Shown one piece after another: positions 9,257-62,336 of a stretch of 64,000 bases of DNA. Location: NCBI GenBank assembly GCA_963813155.1, contig CAWEYG010000003.1, positions 832,001 to 896,000 on the forward strand, read 5' to 3'. The position numbers were made by a program, and so were the translations under genes. The stretch comes from an uncultured Acidobacteriota bacterium. GTDB taxonomy: Bacteria; Acidobacteriota; Thermoanaerobaculia; UBA5066; DATFVB01. The notes under the pieces were generated by a model. It ran no database searches, was not told the origin of the DNA, and was given only the letters and a program-made list of their open reading frames with translations. Within the stretch, counting starts at the first letter, position 1. Each line of letters opens with the position of its first letter.

Positions 9257-11906
9257 ATGGCGCCCGAATCCGGGCGGCCGCCAGAAGATTCCGTCGTTCG
9301 CGCCTCCGCGGCAACCGCTGCGACGCCGACCGTCGCCTGCACGATCGTCTCGAAGAACTATCTCAGCCTCGCGCGTGTCTGGAACGACTCGCTGAGGCGC
9401 CTGCACCCCGAGATCCGCACGATCGTTCTGCTCGTCGACCGAATCGACGGCTGTTTTGATCCCGAGCGGGAGGGATTCGAAGTCCTCGAAGCCGAGGAGC
9501 TCGGAATCCCCGACTTCCTCGACATGGCCTTCAAGTACAACATCGTCGAGCTCAACACGGCCGTCAAGCCCTTCCTGCTCGACTACCTTCTCCGTCGCCG
9601 CGGCATCGAGCGAGTCCTTTACTTCGATCCGGACACGGTTCTCTACGGCCGGCTGGACAAGGTCCTCGGCACCCTCGAAAACCGCCAGATCATCCTCGTA
9701 CCGCACATTCTCGCTCCGCAGGAGAGCGACGGTCGCCGCCCCAACGAGACGGATTTTCTGATTTCCGGCACCTACAACCTCGGGTTCCTCGCGCTCCGGA
9801 AATCCGAAGTGGTCTTTTCGTTCCTTCGATGGTGGCAGGACAAGCTCGCCGACGGAGCGTTTTCCGCGCCGGAGCGGGGCCTCTTCACGGACCAGAAGTG
9901 GATCGACCTCGTCCCGAGCATCTTCTCGGGCGTCGAAATCTTCAAGGACCGCGGGTACAACGTGGCCTATTGGAACCTGCAGGAACGGATGGACCTCGCC
10001 GAAGTGGCCGGCAGCTACCGTTTTCCGGAATGCCCGCTGACATTTTTCCATTTCAGCGGTCTGGAGTTCGGCAAGGTCGAGCGGATCTCCAAGTACCAGA
10101 ACCGGTTCCGCTTCCACAATCTCCCGGCTCCTTACCAGAAGTTGTTCACGGGATACGTTGACGCCATCCGCACCGCCGGCCACGAGGCGACCCGAAGGTA
10201 TCCCTACGCGTTCGACGCTTTCGACGACGGCGTCCGGATCTCGCCTTATCTGCGCTCGCTCTACCACAAGCAGGGGTCCGAACGGGAGCGCTGGGGCGAC
10301 CCCTTTCGGGCGCGCGGCCGCAACACGTTCCGCGAATGGCTGCTCGAGCCGGGCGAGTTCGGCTCGGCGACTCCGCGGGTGCTCGCCGGCATCTACGAGT
10401 CCCGGCCCGACGTCCGAGCCGCGATTCCGAACGGTGAGCGCGAAAACGCGAAACTCCTCCTGGGATGGGCTGTCGGCTCGACGCCGAGGGAATACAAGCT
10501 CGACCCGTTTTTCGTCGACCAGTTTCGGGATCTCTTCGACGCGATCGAGGCCGCGGAAACCGCGATCCGCGTCGCTCGAGAGGCCCGGGAACGCGAGCTG
10601 CTCGGAGCCGCGCGGCCGATCCCTACTACGCCGAGCCGAGGCTCCCCGGCAAACGCGCGCTCCAGCGCATTCTGACCCGCCCGGTCTACCGAAGGCTCCG
10701 GAAGTGGATCTGGCAATATCCCTTCTGGCGGCGGCCCCGGAGCCCGAGGCATCGCACCGGCGCCGGCGCCGGCTCGAGAACCTCGATCCGAACCTTCCTC
10801 CCGGCGTCAACCTTTTCGGCTACTTCGACACCGAGAGCGGAGTCGGGGAAATCGCGCGCAGCATGGCGGCGATGTTGGAACGGTCGGGAACTCCCCACGC
10901 GCTCGTCAACGTGGGCCAGAAGTGGCTGCGCCGCGGGGACCGCCGAGTCCAGCAATTTTCGGCCTCGAACCCGTACGCGGTCAACCTGTTCATGATCAAC
11001 GCCGACCAGCTTCCCCACGTTCTCGCACAGATTGGCGAGTCCGCCCGCCGCGGCCGGACGAACGTCGGCTACTGGTTCTGGGAGCTGTCCACGTTTCCGC
11101 AGACTTCCGCGGGAGCTTTCGGGTTCCTCGACGAAGTGTGGGTCGCGTCGGAGTTCTGCCTGAAGGCGATCTCGGCCGCATCGCCGATCCCGGTCGTGAA
11201 AGTCTCTCCCGGATTCGAGTTCGAGCGACCGCGAGGTCGCCGGACACGCTCGTCCTTCGGGATCCGGGATGACGATTTCGTCTTCCTCTATGTCTTCGAC
11301 AGCGCTTCGTCGGTCAAGCGCAAGAATCCGGCCGGCCTCATTCGGGCCTTCCAGACGGCATTCCCGAACCCCGGGCGAGAAAGGCTCGTCCTCAAGACGA
11401 TCAACTCGACCCCGCAGAGAGACGCGGCTCTCTCCCGACTGGCGCGATCCGGGCGCGTCGAGATTCTCAGCGAATACCTCGATCGGCACGAGTTGCTGGA
11501 CCTGCTCGCGGTGGCCGACTGCTATGTGTCGCTCCATCGAAGCGAGGGCCTGGGCCTGACGCTGCTCGAATCGATGGCCCTCGGCAAACCGGTGATCGCA
11601 ACCGACTACTCGGGCAGCGTTGACTTTCTGCGTCCGGATGTCGGCTTTCCCGTGCCCTACCGGCTCGTCTCCCTCGTTCGCAACGTCGGGCCCTACGCGA
11701 AAGGAAGCGTGTGGGCCGAGCCCGACCTCGACGAGGCGGCACGTCTCATGAAGTTCGTCCGCGAGAACTCTCCCCAGTCCCTGGCGGTTGCGGCCGCGGC
11801 CCGTCACGAGGTCGAGACCTCATGGTCGATTGCGGCAGCCAGCCGCCGCCTTCAAAAGGAGGTCGATCGTCTGTTGGGAGAGCGGAGGGCGGCGAAGTCC
11901 GTCTAG
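9257..11906 (+). CDS. Two-domain glycosyltransferase (N-terminal GT-A-like plus C-terminal GT4); apparent frameshifts near 10600 and 10735
   Basis: CTIVSKNYL, ELNTAVKP, YFDPD and FTDQKW in the first frame; GVNLFGY, GYWFWEL and SLHRSEGLGLTLLESMALGKPVIAT in the last; a linker reads in a third frame. Confidence 0.8.
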
Positions 11907-16589: not shown

Positions 16590-17879
16590 TCATCGCCGCC
16601 GGGAGCGGAGGACCTCGAGACGCTGCTTCAGCATCCCGGCGACGGCCGGGCGCCCGTAACGGGTCTCGACGAGGGCCGCGGCCGCGGCGCCGCGCCGACC
16701 CGATTCCTCGCGATCCTCGAAGACCCTTCGCATGGCGAGCGCCGCCGCGTCCAGGTCCGGCTCCGCCCAGATCGCCCCCTTCTCGTAGGGCCCGATCGCC
16801 TGGGAAAGCTCGACAAGGCGGTACGGGACGGGAAATCCCGTCGCCTCGGAGAGAAAATCGACCGTTCCCGAATAGCCCGTCGCGATCACCGGCTTTCCGA
16901 GCGCCATCGCTTCCGCGCAGGGAAGGCCGAATCCTTCGGAGCGGTGCAGCGACACGAGCGCGTCGCAATTGGTCAAGAGGCCGTCGATCTCTTCTCGCGA
17001 CGAGATCCAGTCGAGCACGCGAATCGGTCTCCCGCGCGCCGCGGCCTTCAGCTTCTCGACTCCCTCCGGATCGGTGTCCGGGTGATTGATCTTGAGGATC
17101 AGCTGGGTCTCCGGCGATCCGCCGAAAGCCTGAAGGAACGCCTCGATTGCCCCCTCCGGGTTCTTTCTCGAAAGAACGCTCCCCGCGTCGGCAAGGGCGA
17201 GAAAAACGAAGGCATTCGGGTGAAGCCCGAGTTGCCATCTCTTTCTCTGCGACCGGCGATAGGCGACGTGGGGCGGCAGGACTTGAACGGTCACCGAACC
17301 GTCGGCCGGCAGGGCGCGCTCGACGGCCCCGCGCACGAACTCCGAGGCCACCCAGATTTCGTCGAGCCTCTGAAAACGGTCGCGATGCGAGGCCGGGAGC
17401 TCCGGGAATTCCCAGTACCAGTAGCCGACGTTCACGCGGTTCGCGAAGAAGCGGCCCCCCAGATAGTCCCCCAGGATCTTCATGTGGTCCGAGTTGACGC
17501 AAAACAGGTTGACGTCGAAGGGGTTCTTCCGCTGCAGCACGCCGAGAGAATCGTCCTCGTCGAACCGGTCGCGGTCCGCGCCGTCCGCGTTGACGAGCGA
17601 GGTCGGAATCCCCGCGTCGTGCGCCGCCTGTACGAACGATCGCCCCGACTCCCCCACTCCCGAGGCCGAACGAAGGAAACCGATGACGTTTAACCCGGCC
17701 GGCAGATTCTGTTTCGGGTAGAGAGCGGGGTCGAAGTCGAGCCGCACCGACCAGGCGTGGTATCGCCGAAGGAGGCGCGTGGGCACCACGTGGATCAGGA
17801 GCCATCGCCAGGGGCGGAGCTTCTGAAACAGCCCGCGGACCCGGTGGGACAGCGGCAGACCGGGCGTCTCTCGACTCAT
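16590..17879 (-). CDS. GT4 glycosyltransferase
   Basis: GYWYWEF and SLHRSEGFGLPCAEAMALGKPVIATGYSG; paralog of the C-terminal domain of 9257..11906. Confidence 0.88.
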   Translation of the reverse strand: MSRETPGLPLSHRVRGLFQKLRPWRWLLIHVVPTRLLRRYHAWSVRLDFDPALYPKQNLPAGLNVIGFLRSASGVGESGRSFVQAAHDAGIPTSLVNADGADRDRFDEDDSLGVLQRKNPFDVNLFCVNSDHMKILGDYLGGRFFANRVNVGYWYWEFPELPASHRDRFQRLDEIWVASEFVRGAVERALPADGSVTVQVLPPHVAYRRSQRKRWQLGLHPNAFVFLALADAGSVLSRKNPEGAIEAFLQAFGGSPETQLILKINHPDTDPEGVEKLKAAARGRPIRVLDWISSREEIDGLLTNCDALVSLHRSEGFGLPCAEAMALGKPVIATGYSGTVDFLSEATGFPVPYRLVELSQAIGPYEKGAIWAEPDLDAAALAMRRVFEDREESGRRGAAAAALVETRYGRPAVAGMLKQRLEVLRSRRR

Positions 17880-52927: not shown

Positions 52928-53101
52928 GGGAGGTGGTCGCGAGAGAGGGAATCGGCTGTTTGAGGCGCCGTCTCGTGCGCCGACCCAAGGTGGAGGCTCG
53001 ATGACTTCCAATCACGAAGCCAGGTCAGCCTCCCCTGTTCACACTGCAGCGGTCGGCGCAAGGCGACGAGTTCCGATTCCCGAACGAGCGAGCCACCTCC
53101 C
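52928..53101. repeat. Long imperfect intergenic hairpin, copy A
   Basis: Nested pairs GGGAGGTGG/CCACCTCCC, GGGAATCGG/CCGATTCCC, TGCGCCGACC/GGTCGGCGCA and GGAGGCT/AGCCTCC. Confidence 0.8.
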
Positions 53102-56676: not shown

Positions 56677-56700
56677 GACATTGCTCAACCGGAGCCACTC

Positions 56701-56722
56701 GTCATCCCCGCGAACGCGGGGA
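56701..56722. repeat. REP-like hairpin element, left arm (split by IS30)
   Basis: GTCATCCCCGCGAACGCGGGGA is an internal palindrome and is inverted relative to 57784-57811. Confidence 0.85.
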
Positions 56723-57712
56723 GGTGGATTCACATTTGAAGTGCAACAGATGAGAGAAGACCTCGGCCGGGGTTTGGAAGTCAAGGCATTTCCTAGGTGT
56801 GTGATTGTAGAGTTGGGCAAGGCGGAGGATTTGGCTCGTGGGAAGGACTGCCAGGTCGGTTTTTCGGGGGAGGAAGCGACGAAGCCGGCCGATGGCATTT
56901 TCGACTCCGCCCTTCTGCCAAGGAGACCGTGGATCGCAAAAGAATGTTTCGACTCCGAGGGTTTTCCCCAGGCGGTGATGGAAAGCGAACTCGGTTCCGT
57001 TGTCGAAGGTCACGGTGCGGCGCAGGGACGGGGGAAGAGGTCGCAGAAGATTTTCGATGGTAGAGACAAGAGGTGCGGCGGCCTTGCTTTGTTGACGCAG
57101 GATAACCGTCAGTCGAGAAGTACGTTCGTGAAGGGCCAAGACGGCCTGCCCATAGGTGGCAAAGAGCATGAGATCGGCCTCCCAATGGCCAGGGTTGGTT
57201 CGGTCACTGGCTTCTGGGGGTCGCAGAGCAATGGGGACACGGTCTTGGATGTGCACGGTCGAGTTGCCGTGTTTTGGGGAGCGTCGGCCGCGCTTGCTCT
57301 TGCCGCGGGGGAGGTAGAGCCGCCAGGAGTAATCCTTGGTGCGAGCGATCTGAGCGGCGATGAAGCGATAAATGGTTTCATGACTGACAACCGGCCGGCC
57401 TTCTTCGCGCGCGAGCCTGCCGGCGACCTCCTGCGGCGACCATCCCTGACTGAGGCGGTCCAAGACCAGAGCCTGGAGGTCGGGCCGACGCAACAGTTTG
57501 CTGCCGGTCCAGCGCCGTGCCTTGGCCTGTTGACCGGCGTAAACGGGCTGATACCCGCCCGACGTCGTGCAGTTGCGCTTCAGCTCCCGAGCAACGCTCG
57601 ATGGCGCGCGATCCAGACCTGCCGCGATTTGCCGGATCGATTGCCCGGCGCAGCGACGCCGGGCAATCTCACACCGTTCCTGGATCCCAAGCTGCCCGTA
57701 TTGGCGCCCCAT
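56702..57712 (-). CDS. IS30-family DDE transposase
   Basis: HTH SIRQIAAGLDRAPSSVARELKRN, WSPQEVA, SHETIY, GHWEAD, TFDNGTEF and PWQKGGVEN. Confidence 0.95.
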   Translation of the reverse strand: MGRQYGQLGIQERCEIARRRCAGQSIRQIAAGLDRAPSSVARELKRNCTTSGGYQPVYAGQQAKARRWTGSKLLRRPDLQALVLDRLSQGWSPQEVAGRLAREEGRPVVSHETIYRFIAAQIARTKDYSWRLYLPRGKSKRGRRSPKHGNSTVHIQDRVPIALRPPEASDRTNPGHWEADLMLFATYGQAVLALHERTSRLTVILRQQSKAAAPLVSTIENLLRPLPPSLRRTVTFDNGTEFAFHHRLGKTLGVETFFCDPRSPWQKGGVENAIGRLRRFLPRKTDLAVLPTSQILRLAQLYNHTPRKCLDFQTPAEVFSHLLHFKCESTSPRSRG

Positions 57713-57759
57713 CGCAGCACCCCCATCAGAAGGTGTTGCACTTCGTTTGTGAAATCAAA
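56723..57759 (-). mobile_element. IS30-family insertion sequence, 1037 bp, with 26-bp imperfect terminal IRs and 3-bp target duplication GGA
   Basis: IRs GGTGGATTCACATTTGAAGTGCAACA (56723-56748) and TGTTGCACTTCGTTTGTGAAATCAAA (57734-57759); GGA at 56720-56722 and 57760-57762. Confidence 0.92.
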
Positions 57760-57811
57760 GGATCGCTCCGTGGTGCCCGCCCCGAGCGATTCCCGCTTGC
57801 GCGGGAATGAC
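57760..57811. repeat. REP-like hairpin element, spacer and right arm
   Basis: GGATCGCTC-15 nt-GAGCGATTCCCGCTTGCGCGGGAATGAC; contains ATTCCC-N8-GGGAAT. Confidence 0.85.
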
Positions 57812-60381: not shown

Positions 60382-61659
60382 TCAGACTTCCAGGCCGTAA
60401 CAGTCGGCGAGGATCTGAATCGGATGCCGGGGAGACACGCCCGCGCCCTGCGAGATCTGGAGCCCCGCCAGAGGACAATCCGTCGCGACGGCGTCGGCAG
60501 AAGTCTCCCGGAGTTTTTCGAAAAGCGGCTTGCCGATTTCCATGGACATCGGAAAGTACTCCGTTTTCATCGACCACGTGCCGTCGTGTCCCGAGCATTT
60601 CTCGATCGTTTCGACGTGGTTGCCCGGAACGAGTGCCAGGAGATCGCGCGACTTGAACCCGATGTCCTGCACCTTCAAGTGGCATGCCACGTGGTACGCG
60701 ATGCGGCCCGCCGCCTTCGGGAAGTCGGTCTCGAGCTTGCCCGCCGCGTGCCGTTTCATCAGATACTCGCTGAGATCGAGCGTCGCCCGGGAGAGGGCGT
60801 CCGCATCCGCGTCCTTTCCGAGAAGCGGATATTCCTTCTTGAGAGTGAGCGAGCAGGTCGGGCCGGTCGTGACGACCGGAATCCCCCGGCGGACGAAGGG
60901 CATCAGCGAATTCAGGTTCTCGCGGCGGTTCCCGCGAGCGGAGTCGAGATCGCCGGAATCGAGAAACGGCATTCCGCAGCATTTCTGAAACGGGACGATC
61001 ACTTCGACTCCGTTTTTTTCGAGGACTGCGACGGCGGCCTTGCCGATGTCGGGATTGTTGAAATTCACCGAGCACGTCGTGAACAGGACGACGGCGTCGT
61101 CGGTTTGCAGGTCCGAAAGCGACATCTTGCCGCCCCGGCCCGCCCACCATTTCTCGAAGGTCTCGCCGTGAAAGACAGGAAGAAGCCGGTCCCGATGCAC
61201 GCCGAGCGTCTTTTCCATGGCCCAGCGCAGCGGGGCGGTCCGATTCGCGAAATTGACGACCGGAGCGGCGAGGGATGCGAGCGAGCCCAGCGCGTCCGCG
61301 GAACCGAGCACCCGGTCGCGAACGGGAGGCCTGCCCTCGTTTCGAACCCGGGCGGCGCGATCCCGCAGGACGAGCCGCGGAATATCCACGTCCCACCGGT
61401 GGGGCGGATAGTACGGGCAGTGGGGAATGCAAAGCTTGCACTCGAAGCAGAGGTCCGTGAAGGCGTTCAGGTCCGCCTTCGGAACACGATCGATCTCGCC
61501 GTCGACTTCCGGCCGGTCGAGCGCGCGAAAGATCGTGTCGAACGAAGGGCAGAGGTTGTAGCACCGCCGGCACGTGTGGCAGATGTCCATGATCCGCCGG
61601 TACTCCTTCTCGAGCGCGGGAGGATCGGCGAAATCGCGGGCGGAAGGGTCGAACGTCAT
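60382..61659 (-). CDS. Rubrerythrin-associated Fe-S oxidoreductase (GlpC/HdrD-like, CCG domains)
   Basis: CHTCRRCYNLC, CFECKLCIPHCPY, CCGMP, CSGHDG and DCPLA; start at ATG 61659 with a GAGGA RBS. Confidence 0.9.
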   Translation of the reverse strand: MTFDPSARDFADPPALEKEYRRIMDICHTCRRCYNLCPSFDTIFRALDRPEVDGEIDRVPKADLNAFTDLCFECKLCIPHCPYYPPHRWDVDIPRLVLRDRAARVRNEGRPPVRDRVLGSADALGSLASLAAPVVNFANRTAPLRWAMEKTLGVHRDRLLPVFHGETFEKWWAGRGGKMSLSDLQTDDAVVLFTTCSVNFNNPDIGKAAVAVLEKNGVEVIVPFQKCCGMPFLDSGDLDSARGNRRENLNSLMPFVRRGIPVVTTGPTCSLTLKKEYPLLGKDADADALSRATLDLSEYLMKRHAAGKLETDFPKAAGRIAYHVACHLKVQDIGFKSRDLLALVPGNHVETIEKCSGHDGTWSMKTEYFPMSMEIGKPLFEKLRETSADAVATDCPLAGLQISQGAGVSPRHPIQILADCYGLEV

Positions 61660-61728
61660 GGGTGATTCCTCGCCTCGCGAGGGCGGCTGTCGCGAGCGAG
61701 CGGTCCACTCGGAAGGGGCGCGGAATCG

Positions 61729-61901
61729 CCGGCTGCGGGCGGCAACTGCTCGCAACGAGGGAATCGGCCCTTGTCTGGCTCGCTGTTCTCCGACTCGAAA
61801 CGAGGTTCCAGGAGCTCCGGGAACGCGGCCGAGCGGGAGCACAGCGATGCCGCGAGTTGCGATTCCCGAGCTGAGCGACTAGCCGCACGACGCGCCGCCG
61901 G
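61729..61901. repeat. Long imperfect intergenic hairpin, copy B
   Basis: Nested pairs GCGGC/GCCGC, GGGAATCG/CGATTCCC, TCGCTGTTCTCC/GGAGCACAGCGA and GTTCC/GGAAC around a central GGAGCTCC; end motifs shared with copy A. Confidence 0.75.
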
Positions 61902-61911
61902 TTCACCGAGT

Positions 61912-62336
61912 TCACGATTCCCGAGCGTGTCGAGCCCCTTCTGGAATCGTCCCGCGTGGGATTTTTCGGCTCGCGCGAGCGTCTCGAACCACTCGGCGAC
62001 CTCGGTGAACCCCTCTTCGCGGGCGGTCTTCGCGAAGCCCGGGTACATCTGCGTGTACTCGTACGTCTCCCCTTCGACGGCCGATTTCAGGTTCAATTTC
62101 GTGTCCCCGATCGGAAAATTCGTCGCCGGGTCTCCGACCTCCTTCAGGAAGTCAAGATGGCCGAACGCGTGGCCGGTTTCCGCCTCCGACGTGTCGCGAA
62201 AGAGCCCTCCGACGTCGGGGAATCCTTCGATGTCCGCTCGCCGCGCGAAGTACAGATAGCGGCGGTTCGCCTGCGACTCTCCGGCAAAGGCGTGCTTCAG
62301 GTTTTCGTGGGTCTTGGTGTTGACGAGTTTCGGCAT
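61912..62336 (-). CDS. rbr: Short-chain rubrerythrin (no rubredoxin domain); as sequenced the frame stays open to 61656
   Basis: [31 protein letters not shown] and AEKSHA; a TGA at 61912-61914 is one base out of frame just after the domain end. Confidence 0.9.

Follow-up and report, generated by a model that had tools for sequence, protein, structure and literature searches.

An undescribed, genus-restricted family of long palindromic intergenic repeats in uncultured Acidobacteriota, with one copy between rubrerythrin and CCG-protein genes

Long palindromic intergenic repeats are known from enterobacteria, as ERIC/IRU, and from Neisseria, as Correia/NEMIS. The attC sites, of which the Vibrio cholerae repeats are an example, are lineage-specific imperfect palindromes with a conserved base and a variable centre, and their core sites follow the consensus RYYYAAC / GTTRRRY. 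REP sequences form a further group. According to the accessible part of PMC3733652, on which we also rely for the general description of bacterial MITEs and long palindromic intergenic repeats, the REP unit is a palindrome of 20-40 nt with a GTAG (or CGTC) tag, REP dimers form large hairpins, and some REP families, those tagged CGTC, are also without a dedicated transposase.

Here we analysed a window of 64,000 nucleotides from an uncultured bacterium of the class Thermoanaerobaculia, known as a metagenome-assembled genome (MAG; hereafter G000) of 3.8 Mb with 66% G+C, 23 contigs and a completeness of 90.8%. Two long hairpins, A and B, lie in this window, and we observed that they belong to a family that resembles MITE, ERIC and Correia elements in many respects. 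The likeness concerns the size (within 100-200 nt), the non-coding, imperfectly palindromic sequence, the intergenic position, often inside operons and in both orientations, the copy number, which varies between close relatives with filled and empty sites, and the presence of subfamilies with common ends and different interiors. The family differs from them in that its right arm is far more conserved than its left arm, and in that the inserted DNA shows no clear terminal inverted repeat at its extremities.

Structure, copies and distribution of the hairpin family

Copy B (B1, of the B-type) was reported as a long imperfect hairpin at 61729..61901 (plus strand), and the sequence, its folds and its matches to an nhmmer profile (C3:893738-893895) and to a covariance model (C3:893732-893899, 116 bits) all fall there. 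The sequence-only reading from which we started had described this hairpin as sharing basal motifs with copy A, and this was confirmed by the positions of the motifs and by the RNA fold. Copy A (A1, of the A-type subfamily; 52928..53101, plus strand) has the same basal stems as B and a different interior. The left motif GAGGGAATCGGC is found exactly twice in the window, at 52945-52956 in A and at 61757-61768 in B, and the right motif GAGTTSCGATTCCCGA is exact at 53068-53083 in A and at 61854-61869 in B, where it reads GAGTTGCGATTCCCGA. With up to two mismatches, the right motif has three matches in the window against 0.52 expected, a number reached in 1 of 100 shuffles, and the left 12-mer alone (GAGGGAATCGGC, up to two mismatches) is not enriched there (26 matches vs 20.5 expected). 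Elsewhere in the window (10967-11740 and 16741-17526) we noted long inverted repeats ~5-6.5 kb apart, with arms of 42-62 nt that are 74-79% complementary, which suggests two diverged homologous genes in opposite orientation.

The two arms of the hairpin repeat one motif (TCGC-N6-GGGAATCGG) in inverted form, with a spacer between them. A-type and B-type copies have in common an outer stem GGGNGGN/NCCNCCC, a TCG/CGA stem, a purine-rich internal loop, an 8-9-bp stem GGGAATCG(G)/(C)CGATTCCC and a junction motif TTGTCTGAG; the interiors of the two types are unrelated to each other. The idea of a family with fixed basal motifs and interchangeable interiors is borne out.

A genome-wide search for further copies, proposed with the initial description, was rewarded. 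By blastn and with an nhmmer profile we detected 11 full and 4 partial copies in G000. The copies are non-coding, dispersed and intergenic, and the element measures 150-180 nt; four of the full copies are of the A-type (~180 nt) and seven of the B-type (~150-165 nt). Two of the full B copies are on contig C12, a strain-variant duplicate of part of contig C3, and the non-redundant copy number is therefore slightly lower. More generally, parts of C2 and C3 recur in a diverged form on contigs C12-C15, C17, C18 and C20. These small duplicate contigs are variants at the strain or species level (the stated contamination is 3.76%); they inflate the repeat counts slightly but allow filled and empty sites to be compared within the bin.

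More copies are present in two congeners, G001 (78% complete) and G002; the latter is an unpublished genome, on which its own copy numbers and the comparisons that involve loci L021, L036, L044, L138 and L142 rest. A covariance model of the B-type gave matches in 3 of 61 genomes of the order, 9 in G000, 10 in G001 and 45 in G002, and none in the other 58, among them four of the sister genus (one of them 51% complete). This model was built on an automatic RNAalifold consensus other than the long hairpin, and therefore works mainly as a sequence profile. When we searched for the right-arm motif with at most one mismatch, 3 of 401 genomes of the class were positive: G000 with 10 matches, G002 with 47 and G065, which is from another family, with one match carrying one mismatch; G001 is outside this sample of the class. 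The motif was also found in 21 metagenome stretches, which include both A and B types. No viral contig contained the right-arm motif, and neither a B copy nor an A copy had a match in the plasmid collection by a distant-mode search. The window has no Rfam match at the gathering score, and the copies have none at E up to 1 (five loci), in agreement with the initial suggestion of an undescribed system. In the portions available to us of the literature on intergenic MITEs of Acidobacteria and on repeats of Thermoanaerobaculia we found no description of the hairpin family. Taken together, the hairpin is a genuine, undescribed and genus-specific family of long palindromic intergenic repeats.

The B locus and other insertion sites in related genomes

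B1 is flanked by two minus-strand genes, one for a CCG cysteine-rich / 4Fe-4S protein (60382..61659; PF02754), whose start codon is 17 nt from the outer left end of B1, and one for rubrerythrin (61920..62336; PF02915, 3e-29). The 1.9 kb around B align end to end with the corresponding loci of G001 (86% identity) and G002 (78% identity), and the element is at the same place in both. Only two of 48 related public loci, L059 and L060, hold it. In genomes of the sister genus (G003-G005), the element is absent and the rubrerythrin stop and the start of the CCG gene are only 2-5 nt apart; therefore, ~225 nt were inserted in the ancestor of the present genus. Comparison of these loci shows that B was inserted between the rubrerythrin and CCG-protein genes before the three known congeners diverged, and that it has been inherited vertically since then while decaying. 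The interior of B, which had been called unrelated to that of copy A, turned out to derive by divergence from the usual interior of B-type copies: the canonical stem CTGGAGTTCTTC...GAGAACTCCGG is kept in the G002 orthologue, the G001 orthologue is intermediate and B1 has diverged.

Alignment with the two congener loci also gives the limits of the element. The whole of B1 occupies 61676..61900 (plus strand), including its original outer left end CGCGAGGGCGGCTGTCGCGAG at 61676-61696. It contains a 59-nt insertion (61697..61755, plus strand), a partial duplicate of the left end, which is specific to G000 and corresponds to a gap in both congeners at the B locus, the placement of the gap being ambiguous by a few bases. 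The hairpin first described is thus real, but its start at 61729 falls inside this 59-nt insertion and has to be moved to an original left end at ~61676-61696.

It had also been stated that both copies are located between co-directional minus-strand genes. This is correct for A; for B in the present assembly, the rubrerythrin frame (61656..62336, minus strand) runs through the element because two extra bases, 61918-61919, remove the stop that is present in relatives. These bases belong to the 3' end of the rubrerythrin gene, a segment that sequence and alignment show to be right-arm-motif-like (61907..61925, plus strand). In the relatives, rubrerythrin ends with ..LDTLGS or ..LDTLGM followed by a stop, which precedes the element in both congeners. 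The rubrerythrin domain (PF02915) covers residues 11-133 of the 226-residue open frame; we noted that this frame is lengthened by ~90 residues through the repeat and ends at a TGA overlapping the ATG of the next gene. The two extra bases may be a real frameshift or a MAG consensus error caused by the repeat. A copy inside an open frame, giving a C-terminal extension of rubrerythrin in this assembly, recalls the Rickettsia palindromic elements, yet here two inserted bases, perhaps an error of the assembly, cause the read-through, and the stop of the congeners precedes the element.

The rubrerythrin/CCG-gene spacer of a more distant relative, L079, whose CCG protein is 76% identical, carries a different palindromic insert of ~270 nt (~1220-1490), with ends GTGTCCCGCCCCGGAAATA / TATTTCCGGGGCGGGGCAC.

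Other sites were compared in the same way, and presence or absence does differ between sister genomes, a point that the initial description had proposed to check. One site carries a B copy in G001 and on contig C12 and is empty at C3:996154-996156, where two genes overlap (GCGTTGATCC). In the filled form there are ~215 nt, with a linker on either side of the hairpin, and neither the stop nor the start is lost; it reads ..TCGTGA ... CGTGATCC. The sequences ..TCGTGA and ..CGTGATCC may represent a short target duplication, being too diverged for us to be sure. The hairpin arms are inverted repeats, yet the inserted DNA at this clean filled/empty site extends beyond them by ~20-55 nt of non-conserved linker on each side, and the target duplication is not crisp.

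Other changes were also observed. In G002 there are blocks of 476 and 484 nt where G000 has empty sites of 20 and 8 nt; each block is made of a B copy and other repeat modules, with no gene inside. At C3:1022806, G001 has an A-type interior with B-type outer ends and G002 a B copy with the same outer ends; G000 has neither A nor B there, and 164 nt of other sequence instead. The A4 site on the strain-variant contig C20 carries a different insert, in which only a right arm is kept, in the opposite orientation.

Most copies are solitary, between unrelated housekeeping genes, and their orientation relative to these genes varies: the flanking genes run opposite to A1 and B1 and in the same direction as B2 to B5, converge around A3 and A4 and diverge around B6 and B7. 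Three companion repeats were noticed. One of ~115 nt (R115), with no Rfam match in L002 or L007 at E up to 1, is present at 53 places in G000, for example at C8:11322-11437 (L009 3752-3867), none of them in the window. A palindromic module, M3 (GGCGCCTCCCGAGAGGAGCG..TTTTTTCGC...GCGAAAAAA..CTCCTCGAGGGAGGCGCC), is present at 13 places and a module U (CTTCGCTCAGGG.TTGGGGCCCC..CCCGCGAGCGA) at 11; examples of both are at C20:18700-18905 in G000 and in loci L142 and L124 of relatives. Four hairpin copies are just downstream of R115 and co-oriented with it. R115, U and M3 adjoin the hairpins in mosaic blocks like those of BIMEs, and whole blocks have been inserted in G002.

Folding, conservation and covariation

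Folded as RNA, copy B reaches -91.1 kcal/mol (z -3.44), which none of 200 shuffles equalled, and its opposite strand -88.1 kcal/mol (z -3.09). As single-stranded DNA, B folds more weakly (-46.3, z -1.5, 13 of 200 shuffles as good). Copy A has -79.7 kcal/mol as RNA (z -2.0, 8 of 200 shuffles as good) and a z of -1.85 for the opposite strand. The stems that had been named in B, TCGCTGTTCTCC/GGAGCACAGCGA and GTTCC/GGAAC, do pair, both being present in its minimum-energy RNA fold. In a fold of 230 nt, the outer left end of B1 pairs with its right end, at a z of only -1.8.

The stable folds of A and B would suit a structured RNA family selected for a function, that is, small RNA genes or cis hairpins bound or processed by a protein as sites of mRNA processing or stability, the right arm being the binding site. 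We regard this explanation as unlikely. We counted pairs on a hand-defined structure of six helices (39 pairs) in 23 distinct B copies, 7 from G000, 7 from G001 and 9 from G002. Identity to the consensus is 0.92-0.99 in the near-invariant right arm (..GCGATGCCGCGAGTTGCGATTCCCGAGC.GAGCGA..GCCGC; 61836..61894, plus strand, in B1), 0.95 and 0.88 in the inner stem, and 0.73 in two loop regions, the apical loop and the linker. Conserved stems and right arm with two hypervariable loops count in favour of a functional RNA. The same is true of three fixed U·G pairs and of the purine-rich loop, where tandem G·A pairs could form, both possible on the drawn strand only. The left arm is freer, some copies having Watson-Crick pairs in place of the G·A loop.

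In the same structure 84.4% of the cells pair. The true value is higher, as 11 rows of alignment A5 have the GGGAATCGG stem out of register by one column, which also lowers helix 3 in the covariation count. Also in favour of RNA are the covariation of one pair of the outer stem (CG 11, GC 6) and a compensatory change, UCC/GGA, seen once in an orthologue. Against it, double changes concern only 5 of the 39 pairs, mainly that outer-stem pair, the 11-bp inner stem has none in the 23 copies, and the covariation score of 0.084 is barely above the 0.062-0.075 of slid controls (negative slides). With covariation so weak, the claim that structure is conserved without sequence, and hence selected, was not supported. 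Among the derived minority states of the stems, counted with helix 3 left out, 26 are G·U, 26 A·C and 51 other mismatches, with no strand bias; such equal numbers of G·U and A·C speak against a selection of pairing on one RNA strand.

Copies at orthologous positions in G000 and G001 share 88-92% identity, whereas third codon positions in the genes beside them reach 68-87%. Local alignment inflates these figures, and at one of the two loci the linkers show the same degree of conservation. This excess counts for the RNA explanation; as a comparison of sequences, it suggests constraint or gene conversion rather than free decay.

The distribution and context of the copies speak against a functional RNA. 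Copies are found in both orientations relative to transcription units, neither A nor B has a sigma-70-like promoter or an intrinsic terminator, some copies are truncated or chimeric, and it would be unusual for such an RNA to be confined to a single genus, whose three genomes have 9, 10 and 45 copies. We read the pattern of conservation as a constraint on sequence, or as concerted evolution, that affects mainly the right arm, and not as pairing selection of the RNA type. Inserted repeat-type DNA fits the data better than a dedicated RNA system. Two other readings of the right arm, sigma-54-like and tRNA T-arm-like, were set aside on inspection by eye, as spacing and pairing do not fit.

Candidate partners and the nature of the family

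The initial description had raised the prospect of a nuclease, HUH enzyme or recombinase co-occurring with the copies; none was found with them. We searched genome-wide for six Pfam families, PF01797, PF07282, PF01609, PF01548, PF00589 and rve. PF07282 (TnpB zinc ribbon) and PF01609 (DDE_Tnp_1) gave no match, and PF01548 (IS110) was present once in G000 and absent from G002. PF00589 (tyrosine recombinase) was found at three loci in G000, none adjoining a copy or repeat-rich contigs; one of these proteins ends like XerD. The rve search led to an IS30-family element of 1067-1069 bp, the only multi-copy IS, with seven copies in G000 that are 97.6-99.6% identical. Its terminal inverted repeats GATTTCACAAACGAAGTGCAACA have no likeness to the hairpin ends. 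This leaves the hairpin family, by comparison with MITEs, without a partner transposase among the six Pfam families. A self-comparison of open reading frames of at least 180 aa, with a codon-position G+C filter, gave no multi-copy transposase, and it missed the IS30-family element.

One IS30-family copy is in the window at 56700-57766, with an ORF at 56702..57712 on the minus strand (NF033563, 238 bits). One copy of this IS has an internal TGA, and a GC-rich hairpin was seen at its right end.

PF01797 (Y1/RAYT) bears on another explanation, a REPIN-type doublet of REP sequences moved by a RAYT (Y1 HUH) transposase acting on single-stranded DNA hairpins. The arrangement of the arms, inverted copies of TCGC-N6-GGGAATCGG around a spacer, would suit such a doublet, and intergenic, multi-copy, large hairpins are what the available part of PMC3733652 describes for REP dimers; mosaics with other repeat modules are a further point in common with REP, REPIN and BIME sequences. 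However, PF01797 was found in none of the three element-bearing genomes (G000, G001 and G002), whereas 6 of the 14 control genomes, and likewise G004, a genome without the element, gave a match in the same search. No conserved GTAG or CGTC tag is present at either end (alignments A1 and A5), the unit of 150-180 nt with its spacer of 100-130 nt is far above the REP size of 20-40 nt, and genomes contain tens of copies, not hundreds. We find this explanation scarcely credible.

The gene context of a few copies calls for a comparison with cassette systems, in which a recombinase would recognise the folded single-stranded base of an attC-like hairpin, insert or exchange cassettes and swap apical modules. 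The conserved base and variable apex of the hairpin agree with this. On contig C8, an A copy and a truncated left half of a B copy are each followed, in the same orientation, by a module of two genes. Of these modules, the first matches no family and the second is HigB/HigA-like (Gp49, PF05973, and HI1420, PF21716). On one metagenome contig, three A-type copies stand ~1 kb apart with the same orientation, and the genes between them encode a CsbD-like protein, an HTH_3 protein and a RelE/StbE toxin (31.7 bits, cut-off 27.9). The site C3:1022806, where the interior type differs between congeners and the ends are alike, would also be explained by the swapping of modules.

At the end of the B-type left half on C8 (C8:13200-13290; L009 5630-5720), which stops abruptly at the HigB/HigA-like module, we noticed that the junction reads TTGACT-17 nt-TACAGT and is promoter-like by eye.

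Several observations weigh against attC-like sites. Core motifs of the consensus RYYYAAC / GTTRRRY are absent from the alignments (A1 and A5); GTT triplets do occur in the hairpin, yet RRRY does not follow them, nor do they pair with AAC. No integron integrase was found for the family by the PF00589 search of G000, with only the three tyrosine-recombinase loci mentioned above. Most copies are solitary, inserted blocks contain no genes, and the first C8 module lacks a family match. We consider an attC-like cassette system quite improbable. A related proposal, to which we give little credence, is that the hairpins are sites of an enzyme acting on the right arm of the folded strand, which would swap apical modules and build arrays of toxin-antitoxin and stress-gene cassettes, in the manner of integrons and without attC cores or IntI.

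The explanation that we prefer is that copy B is a member of a genus-restricted set of imperfect-palindrome repeats of the MITE/REP/BIME kind, inserted intergenically and spread in trans; it is probably correct. It is favoured by the narrow distribution, the five-fold differences in copy number, the filled and empty sites and the presence of both orientations, as well as by the mosaics, truncations and chimeras, the weak covariation and a decay that is symmetric between strands.

Against inserted repeats of this kind stand the absence of a transposase with matching ends among the families searched, the fuzzy termini and a target duplication that is not crisp. The uneven conservation (0.92-0.99 in the right arm against 0.73 in the loops), the identity of G000/G001 copies above that of third codon positions, and the U·G and G·A pairs of the drawn strand only also argue against it. 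The repeat reading does not account for the missing enzyme, the fuzzy ends, the near-invariant right arm and the cassette-like arrays beside toxin-antitoxin genes, and a role of the hairpins as recognition sites, at the level of RNA or of recombination, keeps a low probability.

If the family is of the MITE/REP/BIME kind, it would spread, or would once have spread, as non-autonomous mobile DNA, with an enzyme acting in trans that probably recognises the conserved basal part and above all the near-invariant right arm. Recombination between copies would then swap interiors. Copies inside operons would be co-transcribed and could form a stable hairpin in the mRNA in either orientation, which, by analogy with other intergenic palindromes, could alter decay or read-through.

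For annotators, these results are a warning that the rubrerythrin "extension" in this assembly is repeat DNA. The repeats explain why the assemblies of one congener are in hundreds of contigs, many of which end in the hairpin repeat, and the family can be used as a strain marker. With them, an undescribed repeat family and its mosaic of companion repeats are added to a barely studied, uncultured class of Acidobacteriota. Should the right arm prove to be a site recognised by a protein, the family would open the way to a so far unknown activity of mobilisation or recombination.
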